Part shown: positions 16,474 to 23,363 of the stretch, piece by piece
Position numbering within the stretch: the first letter of the stretch is position 1
Layout: the number at the start of each line of letters is the position of its first letter
Assembly (NCBI GenBank): GCA_040265115.1
Contig: JBDQGZ010000003.1
Location: forward strand, 1 to 35,520
Direction: 5' to 3'
From: Candidatus Nanopelagicales bacterium
GTDB lineage: Bacteria; Actinomycetota; Actinomycetes; S36-B12
DNA: 35,520 nt
Notes under the pieces: model-generated
Database searches by the model: none
Told to the model about the DNA's origin: nothing
Seen by the model: only the letters and a program-made list of their open reading frames with translations
Program-made: the position numbers and the translations under genes

Positions 16474-18045
16474 GTGACCGGCCACCTGTCGAAGGGTTTC
16501 ATCCTCACCACCTTGATCCTCGGTGCCGGGGTAGCCAACATGAACCTCTCCCTCGCCAACGTCGCACTCCCGGACATCAGTCGAGACCTCCAGGCCAGCC
16601 AGGTGGGTACGAACCTCGTCGGCGTCGGCTTCACCCTCGGCCTCGCCGCGAGCGTGCTCTATCTGGGCGCGCTCGGTGACCGATACGGCCGACGCCGCAT
16701 GCTGCTCATCGGTCTCACCGCATCGATTCCGTTCGCGATGCTCGCAGCGTGGGCACCGAACGTCGAGATTCTCGTCCTCGCCCGCATCCTCGGTGGGGTG
16801 GCGGCCGGCATGACCTACCCCACGACGCTCACGTTCATCGTGGCGCTCTTCGATGGAAAGGAACGCACCACCGCCATCGCGCTGTGGTCCGGCATCGGTG
16901 CGGCTTTCGCCGCGATCGGCCCACCCTTCATGGGCTGGCTGTTGACCTTCGCCTGGTGGGGGGCGGGCTTCCTCCTGCCGATTCCACTCGCCGTCGTCGC
17001 CCTCGTCATGGCCTGGCGTCTCCCGAGCAGCACCGGGGAGGGAGACGAGAAGGTCGACAACCTCAGCGGCATCCTCTCGATCGTCATGGTGACCGCGCTC
17101 GTCCTCGCCATCACATTCGCGCCCATGCCCGGGGTCGGGGTCATCGCCATCTCGCTCGCGGTCACGGCCGTGGTGCTCATCGCGTGGTTCATGCTGCGCC
17201 AGCGCACGCTCGACAACCCGCTCTATGACCTCAGCATCGCCAAACGGCGCATCTTCTGGGTCGCCGCGCTCGCCGGGATCATCGTGTTCGGCTCGCTGAT
17301 GGGCGCGTTCTTCATCGGCCAGCAATACCTGCAGGATGTCCTCGGCTACGGCAGCCTGGGTGCCGGCCTGTCGATCCTGCCGACCTCAATCATGCTCGTG
17401 CTCGTCGCACCCATCGCTGCACGAATGATCACCGCACTCGGTTCGCGGATGACCCTCATCATCGGTTTCGCCGTGCTCGCCGCGGGCTTTCTCACGATGC
17501 TGTCGTGGCGCCCGGATTCGTCCATCACGCTCGTGCTCATTGCCTACGCACTACTCGGAGCCGGTGTGTCCATCGCGGCCGCACCCGCGTCGCGATCGAT
17601 CATGGCCGCGGTGCCCCAGCGGCGCCTCGGCATGGGGTCGGCGACCAATGACCTTCAGCGCGATCTCGGCGGCGCGATCATGCAGTCGGTGATGGGCTCA
17701 CTGCTCGTCGTGCGCTACGCCTCATCGCTGCGCGAATCGCTGTCCGGGATTCCCGAGGATCAGCGCCAGCAGGTCACCGATCAGACCGTCACCCTCTTGA
17801 CCTCGTCCTTCGCCGGGGCCGAGCAGGTCGCTCAATCACTCCCGCAGTCCGAGGCGAACACACTGATCCAATGGGCCTCTGATGCCTTCGCGCGTGGCTC
17901 GGGTCTCGCCTTTGCCGCCGCACTCCTGGCGGTAGGCGTAGGTATGGCGATCGTGGTGTTCCTCTTCCCCGGCAAGGCTGCCGAGATCGAGGTCGAGGAG
18001 AAATACGCGCGGATGGATCAGGCAGGTCAGAACAACGCGGAATAG
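16474..18045 (+). CDS. MFS transporter, DHA2 (14-TM) drug:H+ antiporter-like
   Basis: [20 protein letters not shown] motif [10 protein letters not shown] and a long loop before the last TM. Confidence 0.88.
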
Positions 18046-19028
18046 CCGTTGAGAGCCGGCTGGCCTCCGAGGTGGGCGTAGAGAACCTTGGATGACTGGT
18101 CGATCTCGCCGCGAACGATCAAATCGAGCATTCCCGCCATCGACTTTCCCTCGTACACCGGATCGGTGATCATTCCCTCAGTGCGCGCCGCTGTGCGCAT
18201 CGCATCGAGGGTCTGCTCATCGGGAATGCCATAGATCCCAGCGTGGTAATCAGGGTTCAACTCGACATCGTCATCAGTCACCTCGACCCCGATCAGCGCG
18301 CCGGTGGACTTCGCAATGCGAGTCACCGCTGCCAGCGTCTCGGGAACCTTCGCGGACGCATCGATCCCCAGCACCCGACGACGTCGATCACGCTGAGCGA
18401 AGCCCGCGACCATGCCGGCCTGCGTCGAACCGGTGACCGAGCAGACGATGACCGTGTCGAAGAAGACACCGAGTTCAGCTTCCTGCTGCTCGACCTCGCG
18501 CGCCCACTGTGCGAATCCGAGACCACCGAGCGGGTGATCGCTGGCACCGGCGGGAATGGCATAGGGCGTTCCGCCGGATTCGCGGACCTCGGCAAGCGCG
18601 TTCTCCCAGGACTCCTTGAATCCAATGCCGAACTCTGCCTGCACGAGCCGAACATCAGCACCCGCGAGCCGTGAGAGCAGGATGTTGCCGACCTTGTCGT
18701 ACACCGCATCCGGCCAGTCGACCCAGGACTCCTGGATCAATACGCACTTCATGCCGACATGTGCCGCGACCGCCGCGACCTGCCGGGTGTGATTGGACTG
18801 GACTCCACCAATCGAGACCAGGGTGTCTGCGCCATGCGCGAGCGCATCCGCGACGAGGTATTCCAGTTTCCGGGTCTTGTTGCCACCGTATGCGATTCCG
18901 GAGTTGCAGTCCTCGCGCTTCGCCCAAACCTCAGCTCCACCGAGATGAGCAGTCAACCGATTGAGTCGATGCACCGGCGACGGGCCGAACAGCAGCGGGT
19001 AGCGGGCGTAGTCCTCGATGCTGGGCAT
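18027..19028 (-). CDS. acdS: 1-aminocyclopropane-1-carboxylate deaminase
   Basis: [21 protein letters not shown] (PLP Lys), [25 protein letters not shown] and YAHLGG carry the Glu and Leu that distinguish AcdS from D-cysteine desulfhydrase; AAGGAG RBS at 19040-19035. Confidence 0.95.
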
Positions 19029-19065
19029 GATCCACTCCTTGCAGATGTGATCGATAAACGTGGGG

Positions 19066-19707
19066 CTATGACCGGGGCTCGGCGAGGTATTCGTCGTGGA
19101 GCTCTTGTTGAAGCGATCCGAAGAGATCGCTCGTGATGAGCGCGGCACGCTCGGAGTCACCGTCGGCGAGCGCATCTAGGAGCTCGAGATGACGCGCCGC
19201 GGAAGATTTTGCGTGGTCACCGCCAAAGCGCATCACCTCGATACGCCGGATGAGAGGCGACCATCGTTCGATGGTGTCGGCGAGCGGCCCGTTGTCAGCC
19301 CGATCCACCACGATGCCATGGAAATCTTCATCGGCAGCCAGCGCCGTGCGAACATCACTGACACGGATCGCGGCGAGAAAACGGTCATTCGCCGCCCGCA
19401 TTCGGGTGAGGTCATCGTCGGTGACGCGCGCGATGCGCACGGCTTCGGTGTGCATCAGTCGGATCAAGGCCACGGCGTCTCGGGCCTCGCGGGTGTCGAT
19501 CTCGCTCACCCTGGTGTGGGACTGCGCCTTGCGTTCGACGAGGCCTTCCGCGGTCAGGCGGGCCAGGGCTTCTCGGATCGGCGCCTTGGACATCCCGAGG
19601 TCGTAGGCCAGATCTGCCTCGCGCAGCACGGTGCCCGGAGGATCCTCACCGAAGACGATGCGATCGCGTAGCCGCTCGTAGGCCACATCCCGCAGTAGTC
19701 GACGCAC
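19066..19707 (-). CDS. GntR family (FCD domain) transcriptional regulator upstream of acdS
   Basis: [24 protein letters not shown] wHTH; ADEDFH and H-containing FCD motifs. Confidence 0.92.
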
Positions 19708-19715
19708 CCCACTAG

Positions 19716-19747
19716 ACTAACATGTTAGTGACCCGGTTGACATGTCA
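19716..19747. promoter_or_regulatory. Two palindromic operators (ACTAACATGTTAGT 19716-19729; TGACATGTCA 19738-19747), putative GntR sites
   Basis: Perfect palindromes sharing TRACATGTYA, centred 20 bp apart; the first overlaps the gntR -10 TAGTCT (19719-19714). Confidence 0.7.
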
Positions 19748-19766
19748 GTTGGGGGCATCGTAGAGT
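19737..19766 (+). promoter_or_regulatory. Sigma-70/SigA-type promoter TTGACA-N18-TAGAGT
   Basis: Consensus -35 at 19737-19742 and TANNNT -10 at 19761-19766. Confidence 0.65.
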
Positions 19767-19773
19767 TCTCCTC

Positions 19774-19830
19774 GCAGCCCGGCTGCGCTGTTGTCCCCCC
19801 CGTCGACGGCGCCCGGGCTGCCCTATTTCT
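19774..19830 (+). ncRNA. Candidate small RNA: 18-bp hairpin with C7 loop
   Basis: GCAGCCCGG/CCGGGCTGC and GCGCTGTTG/CGACGGCGC stems, loop TCCCCCCCGT, followed by CCTATTTCT; starts 7 nt after the -10. Confidence 0.5.
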
Positions 19831-19904
19831 CGCCGTTCCTCGCGACATTCCCACCGGACGAACTAGCCCCCGGGCACATGGCCTCCTAGGGCAGAATGCA
19901 GGCC

Positions 19905-21965
19905 ATGGCGCTGCTAAGACGACCGGGCTGGCTGACGAAGTGGGCCACCGACGTCCCGTCGCAGGCCGGCGTCATCGGCGCCGCCTGGAGCGTGGCCGGG
20001 AGTCTGAGCCGCGGCCTGCTACCCCGTTCGCCCCTCGACCAGGCCATGACGACCAGCATCGTGGCGACCATCAACTACCAGCTCACCGCTACCGGTTGGG
20101 CCAGTCTGGAAGCCATCGCGGCCGTCCCCGGGCGGCGACCGGGCACCACCGCGCGCCTCGTCGTCGCAGGGCTCGCGATCACTGGCGGTTACGCCACTGC
20201 CTTCGCCACCGCGAAGCGTTCGGCCACATCACCCATTGCCGCCGGGGCCTATGCCCTCGGCCGGCAGACGGCGTTCAGCGGCATCGCCGGTGCGGCCGCG
20301 TCCATCTGGGACGATCTGCTGCATCGCCGACTCGGCTTGAAGCCCGGTCTCGACACGACGGTGGTGCCGAATCTCATCACCGGGGGCGCCATCGCCGCCG
20401 GAAATGTCTACTTCGCCATACGACGCGCACACAAATACGGCACGACGACATCTGAGCATCGCTTCGCTGGCGTCGATGCCCGCTCGGTCACCGTTGCAGC
20501 CGCGGCCGGGGTCGGGGCCACGGTTGGTCTCGGCACGCTCGTCATCGCCGAGCAGTTCGCCGCACACGGACTCGAGCGCGGCATGACTCGGATCATCGGT
20601 CGCGATCCAGGCGCTCTCGGCTCGCTTGCCGCGCACGGCATCCTCCTCGGTGGTCTCGGTCTTGCGACCACCGCTGCTCTGCGCCAAATCACCGCGCGAC
20701 TGCAGCACAGCGACGACATCGTCGAACCTGCCTACCCCGAGCCCCCGACGTCGTCGCACGTCTCCGCCGGACCCGCGAGCACGATGCCTTTCGATGCGAT
20801 CGGCAAGGAGGGTCGCCGCTTCGTCTTGATGGCCCTCAATGGTCAGGACATCACCGCCGTCATGGGTGAACCCGCTGTCGATCCAGTGCGCATCGTCGGC
20901 GGCTTCGAGTCCAGCGCCGACATCCGCGAGCGCGCGAAACTGACCTTGGCCGACTTCGAATCCTGCGGCGGGTACGACCGAGGACTGATCTGCGTGGCCT
21001 CACCAACCGGTGTCGGCTACGTCAATTACACGATCATCGAGGCGCTGGAATACCTCACTCGCGGCAACTGCGCGACGATCGTTCCGCAGTACGCCCTCGT
21101 GCCCAGTGCTCTCGCAATGCCCCGAACCGCCGAAGGCGTGCACCTGACGAAGCTCATCCTCGAAGGCCTCCGCGATCACATCGATGCCATGCCCGCGGAC
21201 CGTCGACCCCGAGTGGTGTTGATGGGCGAGAGTCTCGGCGCGAACGTCGCCCTCGACGTGTCCACGCTCCCGGGTCCCTATGTCGGCATCCCTGCGCTCG
21301 AGCACCTCGGGGTCGACGGTGGCGTGTACTTCGGAGTGCCGTTCCGGACTGAGTTCTGGCAACGTTGGCGAGACAACCCCGAGGCCATGGACCCCGAGGA
21401 TGACGTGCTGTGCGTCGCGCAACCCGATGAAGCTCCCGCACTCCCGCCGGGTCAGATGCGCCACCTCATGGTCGTTCATCACGATGATCCGGTGAATAAG
21501 TTCGGCTACGCGATGGTGCTCCAACCACCCTGGTGGATGGGACCTCCCGCGACTCGTCCACCCGGTGTTCCGCGGGAGACGCGCTTCCGACCCATCACCA
21601 CCTTTGCGATCGCGACGGTCGATCTGCTGAACGGGATGAACTCCAAGCCCGGGCAGTTCAAGCGTGAGGGGCACGACTATCGCATTGAGGCTCGGCTCGG
21701 CCTGCAGCGTTCCTACGGCCTCGACTGCTCACCCGAGCAGGCCGAGGCGATTGAGGATGAGTTGCGCGAACGCGAGACGCAGTGGGCCGCTCGGCGCATG
21801 ATCGCCCGCACCCTCGACCGAGCACGGCGCAAGATCTCCTCCACCCTGGATGCCTGGGGTGATGTGAACGTGGATGTGGCCGATCTCGACCCCGCCCTCA
21901 CCGAGGTGGTGCCGGGGAACCCACTGCAGCGGTTCAGCCAGATCAGCACGCCTCCCGGAGCCTGA
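19905..21965 (+). CDS. Membrane-anchored alpha/beta-hydrolase family protein
   Basis: N-terminal TM segments; IGKEGRRFV, SPTGVGYVN, GESLG nucleophile elbow, HHDDPV and GHDY; ATG 19905 is preceded by CAGAAT at 7 nt. Confidence 0.82.
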   Translation: MALLRRPGWLTKWATDVPSQAGVIGAAWSVAGSLSRGLLPRSPLDQAMTTSIVATINYQLTATGWASLEAIAAVPGRRPGTTARLVVAGLAITGGYATAFATAKRSATSPIAAGAYALGRQTAFSGIAGAAASIWDDLLHRRLGLKPGLDTTVVPNLITGGAIAAGNVYFAIRRAHKYGTTTSEHRFAGVDARSVTVAAAAGVGATVGLGTLVIAEQFAAHGLERGMTRIIGRDPGALGSLAAHGILLGGLGLATTAALRQITARLQHSDDIVEPAYPEPPTSSHVSAGPASTMPFDAIGKEGRRFVLMALNGQDITAVMGEPAVDPVRIVGGFESSADIRERAKLTLADFESCGGYDRGLICVASPTGVGYVNYTIIEALEYLTRGNCATIVPQYALVPSALAMPRTAEGVHLTKLILEGLRDHIDAMPADRRPRVVLMGESLGANVALDVSTLPGPYVGIPALEHLGVDGGVYFGVPFRTEFWQRWRDNPEAMDPEDDVLCVAQPDEAPALPPGQMRHLMVVHHDDPVNKFGYAMVLQPPWWMGPPATRPPGVPRETRFRPITTFAIATVDLLNGMNSKPGQFKREGHDYRIEARLGLQRSYGLDCSPEQAEAIEDELRERETQWAARRMIARTLDRARRKISSTLDAWGDVNVDVADLDPALTEVVPGNPLQRFSQISTPPGA

Positions 21966-22115
21966 TCGTTCGGGACGTTGTGGGCCGCACAATCGCGCCG
22001 CGACTCACCGTGCCCCGCCATGCTTGCCCTGACACCCCACGTCTGACACGCTGAGTCCCGTTCGCCACTTTTGTCCGTTTTAATCTCAAGTGAGTCCCAC
22101 GTCAAGGGGGAGCGC

Positions 22116-22415
22116 ATGACCTCCATGCCCAGTGATCGGATGCCCAGTGATCGGATGCCCAGTGATCGGATGCCCAGTGATCGGATGCCGGGTGACCCTG
22201 AGGCCCTGCTGACCCCCAGTGAGGTCGCCGCGATGTTCCGCGTTGACCCCAAGACGGTGACCCGCTGGGCCAAGGCCGGCAAGTTGTCGAGTATCCGGAC
22301 CCTGGGCGGCCATCGGCGCTATCGGGCGAGCGAGGTCAAGGCCCTGCTCACGGAGTCCTCCCCGACCCCCGCCGTGCCGGCGGTTCCTCCGCCGCCCGCT
22401 CCCCCAGGTTTCTGA
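22116..22415 (+). CDS. bldC: BldC family (MerR-like HTH) transcriptional regulator
   Basis: LLTPSEVAAMFRVDPKTVTRWAKAGKLSSIRTLGGHRRY closely matches the BldC core; AAGGGGG RBS at 22104-22110. Confidence 0.93.
   Translation: MTSMPSDRMPSDRMPSDRMPSDRMPGDPEALLTPSEVAAMFRVDPKTVTRWAKAGKLSSIRTLGGHRRYRASEVKALLTESSPTPAVPAVPPPPAPPGF
22125..22199 (+). repeat. 15-bp tandem repeat ATGCCCAGTGATCGG x4 plus a degenerate fifth copy (encodes MPSDR)
   Basis: Perfect copies start at 22125, 22140, 22155 and 22170; ATGCCGGGTGACCCT at 22185. Confidence 0.97.
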
Positions 22416-22427
22416 TCCGAGGCGCTC

Positions 22428-23363
22428 TCAGGAAGCGGCAACAGCAAGACCGACGGCTGTGGCAACGCTGAGGACGAGCACTCCCTGCAGCACCCCCACC
22501 GCTCCCCGCACGCTCAATCCCCGATCCATGAGCAGATGCGACAGGTGATCGCGCCCCGGGGTGAACGGATGTCGACCCTCGGCGAGTCGGCGCACCACAA
22601 CGAAGGCAGTGTCCAGCACGGGAACAGCGACCAGCAGCACCGGGATCGCCGCGCTCCACGGGAGATTGATGCCCACGGGTCGCAGGCGCAGAGTGACAAT
22701 GGCGAGCAGGAAGCCGAGGAAGTAGGCCCCCGCATCCCCGAGATAGACAGTCGCCGGCGCCCAGTTGTGCCAGAGGAAGCCGAGCGCGATGCCGGCGAGC
22801 GCGAAGGCGAGACCAGCGACAAAGAACTGCCCGTAGAGCGCGGCGATGATGCCGGTGCCGATGGAAGCCACAAGAGTGGTCGAGGCAGCGAGTCCATCGG
22901 AGTTGTCGAGCAGGTTCATTGCATTCGTCAGCCCGACGATCCAGAGCAGGGTGATGAGCAGGTCCAGCCACTCGATGCGCGTGAATGACACCTGTGTTCC
23001 CGCCCACCACACGATCAGGGCGAGGGCGAACTGCGCGACGAGTCGCACCCAGGGATTCAGTGCGCGAACGTCATCGACGAAGCCGAGGGCGGCAACAGCG
23101 AGCGCGGGGAGCAGAACACTCGCGAGCAGCTCCAACTCCGTCGGATCCCCCGAGATCGCCACCGCCGCGAGGAACGCGACCGTGAACGCCAGGGCAACGG
23201 CGATTCCGCCGATCTTCGGGATGGGGCGATCCTGTTGCTTGCGCCCGCCGTCGGGGGAGTCGACCATTCCGGTGCGATGAGCGATCTTGATCGATCCCCA
23301 CACCAGCAGAGTCGACAGCACTGCGGCGCCGACGAATGAGGCGACGTAGAGCCAGGGAGTCAC
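22428..23363 (-). CDS. MraY/WecA family (GT4) undecaprenyl-phosphate sugar-1-phosphate transferase
   Basis: PIPKIGGIA, LGFVDD, NAMNLLDNSDGLA, YLGDAGA and RDHLSH motifs; multi-TM. Confidence 0.92.
   Translation of the reverse strand: MTPWLYVASFVGAAVLSTLLVWGSIKIAHRTGMVDSPDGGRKQQDRPIPKIGGIAVALAFTVAFLAAVAISGDPTELELLASVLLPALAVAALGFVDDVRALNPWVRLVAQFALALIVWWAGTQVSFTRIEWLDLLITLLWIVGLTNAMNLLDNSDGLAASTTLVASIGTGIIAALYGQFFVAGLAFALAGIALGFLWHNWAPATVYLGDAGAYFLGFLLAIVTLRLRPVGINLPWSAAIPVLLVAVPVLDTAFVVVRRLAEGRHPFTPGRDHLSHLLMDRGLSVRGAVGVLQGVLVLSVATAVGLAVAAS

Follow-up and report, generated by a model that had tools for sequence, protein, structure and literature searches.

A conserved C-loop hairpin upstream of an Abhydrolase_9 gene in a Candidatus Nanopelagicales genome, probably a relocated member of the scr3974 small RNA family

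The element and its surroundings

The window, by which is meant the whole 35,520-nt stretch of DNA that was analysed, occurs once in its assembly of 1.9 Mb (193 contigs, 85% complete). The features of interest are collected in Table 1. A plus-strand hairpin, preceded by a promoter and followed by a U-rich tail, stands between a gntR gene running in the opposite direction and a gene for a membrane hydrolase, beyond which lies a BldC-family gene. As seen from the hairpin, acdS sits behind the divergent gntR. The real start of acdS is probably near 19020, because the alignment with the family model begins at residue 54. The reading frame of the hydrolase is also open from an upstream ATG at 19896. 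A further ORF (19742–20455, 237 aa) runs across the element; Pfam assigns it to no family, its ATG is situated within the promoter, and it was not taken as a gene.

Table 1. Features at the locus, in window coordinates
Feature	Position	Strand	Basis or remark
acdS (ACC deaminase)	18027..19175	−	TIGR01274 at 544 bits (cut-off 392); PALP domain
GntR/FCD regulator gene	19066..19707	−	Pfam/family models; divergent from the sRNA
Perfect 14-nt palindrome ACTAACATGTTAGT	19716..19729		Putative GntR operator 1
−35 hexamer TTGACA	19737–19742	+	Sigma-70-like promoter scan
Palindrome TGACATGTCA	19738..19747		Putative GntR operator 2, on the sRNA −35
−10 hexamer TAGAGT	19761–19766	+	Promoter scan; 18-nt spacer from the −35
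Hairpin (candidate sRNA body)	19774..19821	+	18 bp (9 + 9) with a 2-nt CU bulge at 19783–19784
Apical loop UCCCCCCCGU, 10 nt	19794..19803	+	Presumed functional (seed or recognition) element
U-rich tail CCUAUUUCUC	19822..19831	+	Weak intrinsic-terminator tail; predicted 3′ end
−10-like hexamer CAGAAT	19892..19897	+	7 nt before ATG 19905; candidate leaderless hydrolase promoter
Abhydrolase_9_N + Abhydrolase_9 membrane hydrolase gene	19905..21965	+	Pfam; downstream neighbour of the hairpin
GGGGGA, bldC-like RBS	22106–22111	+	5 nt upstream of ATG 22116
BldC-family gene	ATG at 22116	+	Downstream of the hydrolase gene

TTGACA-N18-TAGAGT is the sole sigma-70-like site found on scanning 18500–22500, with 10/12 matches (0.4 ± 0.7 expected from shuffled sequence). 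It ends 7 nt before the stem, so that the hairpin has a promoter of its own at its foot, and the start of transcription is predicted at 19773–19775, at the base of the stem. The loop exposes a run of seven C (19795–19801). The stem is strong, and the tail that follows it has five U in 10 positions. The succession of promoter, 7-nt interval, 18-bp hairpin and tail had been set out in the preliminary description, and each part is present at the position listed in Table 1; so are the hexamers CAGAAT and GGGGGA to which it had also drawn attention. It also placed the −35 inside a palindrome, and TGACATGTCA does overlap TTGACA.

Folded as the plus strand, the element reaches −35.5 kcal/mol (z = −5.1), and none of 200 shuffled sequences is equally stable. 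The minus strand reaches −28.1 kcal/mol (z = −1.85), a stability equalled by 10 of 200 shuffles. The minus-strand fold is the weaker one because two U-G pairs, 19789/19808 and 19792/19805, which form on the plus strand only, are converted into A-C mismatches. The confinement of two G-U pairs to one strand, remarked upon from the sequence at the outset, is borne out both by the strand-wise folding and by the list of pairs. A terminator scan of 18500–22500 did not call the hairpin. That scan tolerated no loop longer than 8 nt and asked for five T in eight, and the hairpin was missed because its loop exceeds this length and its tail is weak.

Parts of the window are contained in 10 RNA-labelled runs, in every case as assembled contigs. 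The region around the hairpin is partly covered by RNA-library contigs from two studies, those of one study bridging it. Within the four runs examined, contigs of two marsh libraries span 19300–20221 and 19346–19960 at a depth of 5–7, it being in the nature of assembled contigs that they display neither starts, ends nor strand and may include DNA carry-over. One RNA-library contig terminates at 19713, which hints weakly at where the gntR mRNA begins.

Conservation of the stem, the loop and the flanking signals

The hairpin is present in five of the six other genomes of the genus, the sixth being 86% complete, and a covariance-model search finds a single copy in the genome of the window. In the ungapped MAFFT alignment of the six sequences from the genus, UGUCCCCCCCGUC, made up of the loop and the bases that close it, does not vary at all; three stem pairs have compensatory changes and 99.1% of the cells are paired. 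Compensatory changes are found at 10 of the 18 stem pairs when 14 sequences are aligned and at 16 of 18 when 69 copies are aligned (99.0% of cells paired), the alignments from A3 onward being fitted to the model and thus biased towards the structure; the six-sequence alignment, which is unfitted, agrees with the fitted ones on a smaller scale. For the 69-copy alignment, 0/500 shuffles reach the observed score, and when the partners are slid by 1–3 columns the share of paired cells does not exceed 49%. The stem is rich in U-G and G-U pairs (at one pair, for example, UG is seen in 42 of the 69 rows), and the strand is therefore fixed.

In the 69 copies, across order and class, the core of the loop, UCCCCCGUC, hardly varies. 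The stem drifts in the order- and class-level loci while the loop keeps YNUCCCCCGUC, and the conserved segment reaches the loop-closing bases, as UG-YNUCCCCCGUC-RG. The features that define the family are all present in the window, that is, a single long hairpin, a covarying stem and a loop with UCCCCCGU(C). The window scores 79.8 bits with model R2 and 66.8 bits with model R3, values that are circular because the window belongs to the training set; weight is carried by the independent matches in other families that share this loop.

The taxonomic family of the window was searched with model R1 (six sequences), which matches 15 of 151 genomes. R2 (14 sequences) matches 58 of 151 genomes of the order (23/40 genera) and 56 of 151 genomes of the class (45/103 genera), and R3 (69 sequences) matches four of about 140 genomes from other classes of the phylum. 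Almost all of the matches are one per genome. Among the four matches in other classes there is one genome with two convincing copies, and one match is loop-like. Of the weak phylum-level matches L218 and L219, one or both lack the loop and are plain hairpins resembling terminators. Among the 27 class-level loci, three (L062, L076 and L087) belong to genomes that carry an unpublished flag; they are counted for the class, in A5 and A6, and among the neighbours and promoters, and when they are left out the class count becomes 53/148 and the promoter count given below 62/64, with the conclusions unchanged.

In addition, named genomes were scanned with a pattern modelled on the hairpin in one 7.9-Mb member of the class, and this yielded at least 120 loci, here called the Streptomyces type. 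Nearly all of the 80 loci listed with their hosts are from Streptomyces, with two from Streptantibioticus and one from Catenulispora. The hairpin is identical in 107 of the 120 listed loci (at least 120 in all), and UCCCCCGUC is present in 120 of these 120, the loci having been selected by the pattern.

The conservation of the hairpin in relatives is far beyond chance. The preliminary description had left the fate of the stem and the C-loop in related genomes to later comparison, and they prove to be conserved, with covariation in 6, 14 and 69 sequences around a near-invariant loop.

The flanking signals are also retained. A TANNNT hexamer is found at a fixed spot in 65 of 67 loci, starting 37–29 nt before the C-run of the loop (mode −31/−30), as against 2.9% of 32-nt segments drawn at random from these loci; TTG occurs in the −35 zone of 47 of these loci; and the first 10 nt past the helix have a mean T fraction of 0.47 against a background of 0.16, with at least four T in 43 of 64 rows, all of these counts being taken from related loci and hence not independent trials, and the spacers around the signals being unconserved. 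Within the genus TTGAC is kept in five of six genomes, with TTAAC in G002, and TAnnGT is kept. The tails of the genus relatives, such as CCCTGTTTTTCC, CCTTTTTTCTT and TTTTTTTGTC, have 5–7 U and are better than that of the window. A short, unannotated RNA gene on the plus strand, as had been proposed, is thus well supported by its own promoter, a hairpin conserved in structure, a near-invariant C-rich loop and a U-rich tail.

It is hardly credible that there is no gene here and that the hairpin is a palindrome functioning at the level of DNA or a terminator, whether orphan or bidirectional. The hairpin does resemble a terminator, and the phylum-level matches that lack the loop are plain hairpins. 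Yet no plus-strand gene ends upstream in the window for which transcription could be terminated, gntR being divergent. A terminator would also leave unexplained a promoter that is kept at a fixed distance and G-U pairs that work on one strand, as well as a one-copy element whose loop is invariant while its stem covaries.

Gene context, candidate control by GntR and the hydrolase gene

Outside the family of the window the usual setting is a GDPD gene followed by a DUF5926 gene (with a SEC-C motif) and then the RNA, all on one strand; the GDPD and the DUF5926 genes are each found in 17 of 67 loci. The gene after the RNA is convergent and encodes arginine deiminase in 11 loci and a LarC-like protein in eight. 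A homologue of the hydrolase lies within the locus in one of 26 order-level and in none of 27 class-level loci. In most other families what follows the RNA is a convergent or an unrelated gene, so that the RNA cannot be a 5′ leader there. Within the family of the window, an Abhydrolase_9 homologue lies directly downstream on the same strand in 12 of 12 g1/g9 loci.

The DUF5926 gene of the window's own genome is on another contig (C25), with a convergent ORF directly after it, and no hairpin was found behind it there, the best R2 score being 9.7 bits. The RNA gene has therefore moved, and in the family of the window this would have been from a position after the DUF5926 gene to one just upstream of a putatively leaderless Abhydrolase_9 gene. 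Synteny with DUF5926 is a property of most other lineages and not of the RNA itself. In two genomes of the genus (G005 and G006) similarity to the window starts at the promoter; upstream of it are genes for a PLP decarboxylase and an MFS transporter, and there is no gntR-acdS.

The two palindromes in Table 1 are both centred upon ACATGT and are 20 bp apart. The first, ACTAACATGTTAGT, overlaps a −10-like TAACAT (19727->19722) of the divergent gntR, and the second overlies the −35 of the candidate sRNA. Across the six genomes both palindromes are present in the four that have gntR-acdS and in neither of the two that lack it; a sequence related to ACTAACATGTTAGT, T[TA]AACATGT[CT]A, is kept in G002, G003 and G004, each with gntR upstream. 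As a regulon motif TGACATGTCA is uninformative, with two sites in the 1.9-Mb genome where about 1.5 are expected. Since the motif is no rarer than chance, its weight rests on the pairing of the sites and their conservation together with gntR. Three loci of the sister genus have a different divergent gene of the GntR family, confirmed as GntR/FCD by Pfam in two of them, and there the −35, TTGATC, lies inside a different palindrome, TTGATCAA. A GntR gene beside acdS is a known pattern in Actinobacteria, termed acd-AR (PMC4048297). Control of the sRNA by GntR through these candidate operators is plausible, and in this genus the divergent regulator (acd-AR type) probably binds the palindrome on the −35.

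The same arrangement could serve the hydrolase gene. The hairpin might be the 5′ end of the hydrolase mRNA, as a stabilising stem-loop in cis or a leaky attenuator, with any short RNA a by-product and the GntR-controlled promoter really belonging to the Abhydrolase_9 gene. This would fit the 12 of 12 loci just described, and a divergent GntR/FCD regulator combined with a palindrome on the −35, seen in two genera, is the typical layout of a regulator and a divergent structural gene. Three loci of the sister genus (L027, L029 and L030) have no U-tail, and about 15 nt separate the end of their hairpin from the sole in-frame ATG, so that transcription could run on into the hydrolase mRNA there. 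The RNA-library contigs that join the hairpin to the start of the hydrolase gene give it weak support. Set against this, the same RNA elsewhere in the order and class precedes genes that are convergent or unrelated, the members of the genus carry clear U-tails followed by an unconserved spacer of 70–90 nt, and an invariant loop would be superfluous for a cis-acting stabiliser.

The hydrolase gene also has a candidate start signal of its own. As the preliminary description had suggested from CAGAAT in the window, a −10-like hexamer is there, CA[CG]AAT standing 6–7 nt before an in-frame ATG in 6/6 genomes of the genus, and in four loci of the sister genus this position is taken by TAG[GT]CT. A hexamer just upstream of the ATG is the layout of leaderless actinobacterial mRNAs. 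The hydrolase gene therefore need not depend on the sRNA promoter, and the reading of the hairpin as part of its mRNA is considered unlikely.

The loop and the relationship to known small RNAs

Strict constraint on the loop suggests that it is the working surface of the RNA, and G-rich partners were sought for it. A duplex scan of 3637 genomic G-runs gave only noise. Exact complements of the loop are few, with 98 sites in the genome, of which about a dozen lie close to start-like contexts. The best candidate, ACGGGGGGAC, lies 4 nt before the ATG of a gene for a thioredoxin-like lipoprotein on contig C5; it was rejected, since it is not kept in the three relatives in which the site was located, these having GGAGGG, GAGGG and GAAGGA instead; the two other genomes gave no match. 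The complementarity between the loop and the bldC RBS GGGGGA extends to 6 bp only. In the Streptomyces-type loci the DUF5926 RBS is a poor candidate, a run of at least five G being found in just eight of 87. No conserved target was thus found among the neighbours, the one candidate tested and the genome-wide complements of the loop.

To our knowledge Actinobacteria have neither Hfq nor CsrA, and with these two missing other protein partners are conceivable. An independent sRNA might present its loop as a recognition site for an RNA-binding protein, whether poly(C)-binding or of another kind, serving as decoy, sponge or cofactor. Conservation that extends past the C-run to the loop-closing bases is more than a simple seed needs and would suit such a role, as would the lack of a conserved G-rich target among the neighbours and in the one candidate tested. 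There is, against it, neither a candidate protein nor a protein gene common to all of the contexts, DUF5926 being adjacent only outside the family of the window. The closest functional precedent moreover acts differently: 6C is reported to bind several mRNAs through its C-rich loops without a chaperone (PMC6486639). Recognition by a protein is a reasonable alternative, though we regard it as improbable.

The reading that we favour, with moderate confidence when it is taken as a whole, is that 19774 to about 19830 on the plus strand encodes a free-standing sRNA of the scr3974 family, acting by pairing through its loop, relocated, and linked to GntR. A sigma-70-type promoter, TTGACA-N18-TAGAGT, would start transcription at the foot of the hairpin, and the hairpin with its U-rich tail would end it, giving an RNA of about 50–57 nt. 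The 10-nt apical loop (core UCCCCCGU) appears to be the only part under strict sequence constraint. Most likely the loop would be the active surface and would pair with G-rich stretches of mRNAs, much as 6C does with its C-rich loops. What the sequence comparison shows directly is the structure and its conservation, the promoter and tail signals and the synteny; transcription, pairing, the existence of targets and control by GntR are predictions. A broader proposal is doubtful. Actinomycetes would then possess in this family, next to 6C, another C-loop regulator of class-wide occurrence, a minimal sRNA of one hairpin with an invariant UCCCCCGU loop that addresses an equally conserved G-rich partner, and in the present lineage it would have been rewired under GntR and welded to the hydrolase gene. 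Were this so, sensing of ACC or a related ligand would be coupled to post-transcriptional control.

We know of few actinobacterial sRNAs that are conserved beyond a genus, 6C being the textbook exception. About a third of the genomes sampled from the class, to which Streptomyces also belongs, carry the hairpin described here, yet Rfam lists no family for it and the literature searched gives no known function. The alignments and models from this analysis could seed a description of the family. For the genome of the window, one unannotated gene is added, together with a plausible regulatory link from the GntR on the acdS side to the sRNA. The element is probably a relocated member of a class-wide family that is without a database entry, and probably the family of scr3974.

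The suggestion of an unannotated C-loop sRNA in the preliminary description largely stands, and an assignment to 6C or F6 does not. Rfam 15, with the F6 and 6C models whose use had been advised, gave nothing relevant on the whole window at the gathering score or on 20 related loci, and no match to 19650–19950 even at E ≤ 10 or to a Streptomyces-like locus. F6, from mycobacteria, also has C-rich loops. The likeness to 6C (RF01066; B11/ncRv13660c; scr3558) lies in a hairpin loop that exposes at least six C, the RNA of the window having seven; 6C differs in having two hairpins with C-rich loops and another conserved neighbourhood, where the window has one hairpin. A separate two-hairpin locus resembling 6C is found on another contig of the same genome (39.5 bits, under the cut-off of 47 bits), and its second loop, UUCCCCCCCGUA, is similar to UCCCCCCCGU. 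The relationship of the RNA in the window to 6C is one of functional analogy and not of membership.

MTS2975/ncRv13843 of Mycobacterium tuberculosis was also considered as a homologue. It is located near a GDPD gene and has a CRP site upstream (PMC3207917, PMC4117774), and by eye some order-level loci seem to share this setting. It was dropped because the RNA is reported to be absent from M. avium (PMC3774663), which does not fit a class-wide family. A literature search by loop sequence returned only unrelated primers.

Two further sRNAs with C-rich loops are known from Streptomyces. In Moody et al. 2013 (PMC3765725), scr1434/sar6912/svr1031 and scr5583/sar2652/svr5279 are described as conserved and highly expressed. 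As their names derive from other flanking genes, SCO1434 and SCO5583, they probably represent loci distinct from those of the present family.

The closest counterpart is scr3974 of S. coelicolor, for which a literature search found one paper (Swiercz et al. 2008, NAR 36:7240, PMC2602773), with no function or target published in it. There scr3974 is described as RNAs of 42 and 44 nt, with ends mapped by RACE and a Northern signal, located in the 246-nt spacer between the convergent SCO3973 and SCO3974 and on the strand of SCO3974. One copy lies beside the SCO3974 orthologue in S. avermitilis and in S. griseus, and S. coelicolor has a second, silent copy. The RNA is more abundant during vegetative growth on rich medium, and is raised in bldB, whiB and whiG mutants. 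We consider with good confidence that the RNA of the window and scr3974 are of one family, the comparison being one of synteny, orientation and size and not of sequences. SCO3974 would then be the DUF5926 gene, the loop expected in S. coelicolor is AUCCCCCGUC, and Streptomyces would offer a tractable host in which to hunt for the partner.

Both RNAs are very short, comprise a single hairpin and are transcribed independently, as predicted from sequence for that of the window. The hairpin of the Streptomyces type is 40 nt in length, and with two to four leading bases it fits the 42 and 44 nt of scr3974. Just as scr3974 adjoins the co-oriented SCO3974, the family hairpin follows a co-oriented DUF5926 gene in 102 of the 120 Streptomyces-type loci listed (at least 120 in all), the stop codon lying a median of 138.5 nt before it. 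The second copy in S. coelicolor is matched by two copies of the hairpin in two of three Streptomyces-like genomes. Relative to the Streptomyces type the element in the window has a longer stem (48 nt), seven C and not five, and another promoter. It is placed before the Abhydrolase_9 gene and divergent from gntR-acdS, and not after DUF5926.

Palindrome copies and a possible gntR mRNA start

The palindrome TGACATGTCA, a putative GntR operator that overlaps the −35 element of the predicted C-loop RNA, occurs at only one other place in the genome. This copy is located directly 5′ of a GGAGG sequence and a GTG codon, and from that position it may be a further site for this GntR. On the gntR side an RNA-library contig (run X3) ends and then continues as adapter letters. 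The gntR mRNA may begin at this contig end, 6 nt upstream of the gntR GTG, a position consistent with the minus-strand −10-like hexamer TAACAT. Within the spacer of the RNA promoter, RNA-library contigs from two marsh runs carry T in place of G, which is a strain variant.

Positions of the features in the window and elsewhere in its genome
Feature	Sequence	Position
End of RNA-library contig, run X3		window 19713
Palindrome on the −35 of the RNA	TGACATGTCA	window 19738-19747
Strain variant in promoter spacer	T for G	window 19755
BldC-family gene, RBS and ATG	AAGGGGGAG (RBS)	window 22104-22190 (ATG 22116)
Second palindrome copy	TGACATGTCA	contig C80:8582
6C-like RNA	CACCCCCCCGAG, UUCCCCCCCGUAC (loops)	contig C73:7004-7086 (locus L061 1501-1583)

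Upstream and downstream sequences in related genomes

In three sister-genus loci (L027, L029 and L030) a divergent GntR-family gene lies upstream, assigned to GntR/FCD by Pfam in L027 and L030 and called from a short tblastn match only in L029. The −35 of the RNA is TTGATC in all three, contained within the palindrome TTGATCAA. The end of the hairpin is ∼15 nt upstream of the hydrolase ATG, with TAGGCT 6 nt 5′ of that codon. In two sister-genus genomes (L025 and L026) the RNA is separated from the hydrolase gene by a stretch that contains a long inverted repeat, each arm ∼13 nt. Within one family of the order several of the loci L035–L052 contain a CRP-like TGTGA-N6-ACACA site, spotted by eye only, ∼60 nt 5′ of where the RNA is predicted to start.

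The BldC-family gene and a 6C-like RNA

The RBS of the BldC-family gene precedes an open reading frame whose N-terminus is encoded by a 15-nt unit in four tandem copies (PSDRM ×4), after which the protein continues as the HTH. Elsewhere the genome has a two-hairpin RNA resembling the actinobacterial 6C RNA (RF01066); its score of 39.5 bits falls short of the 47-bit Rfam cut-off.
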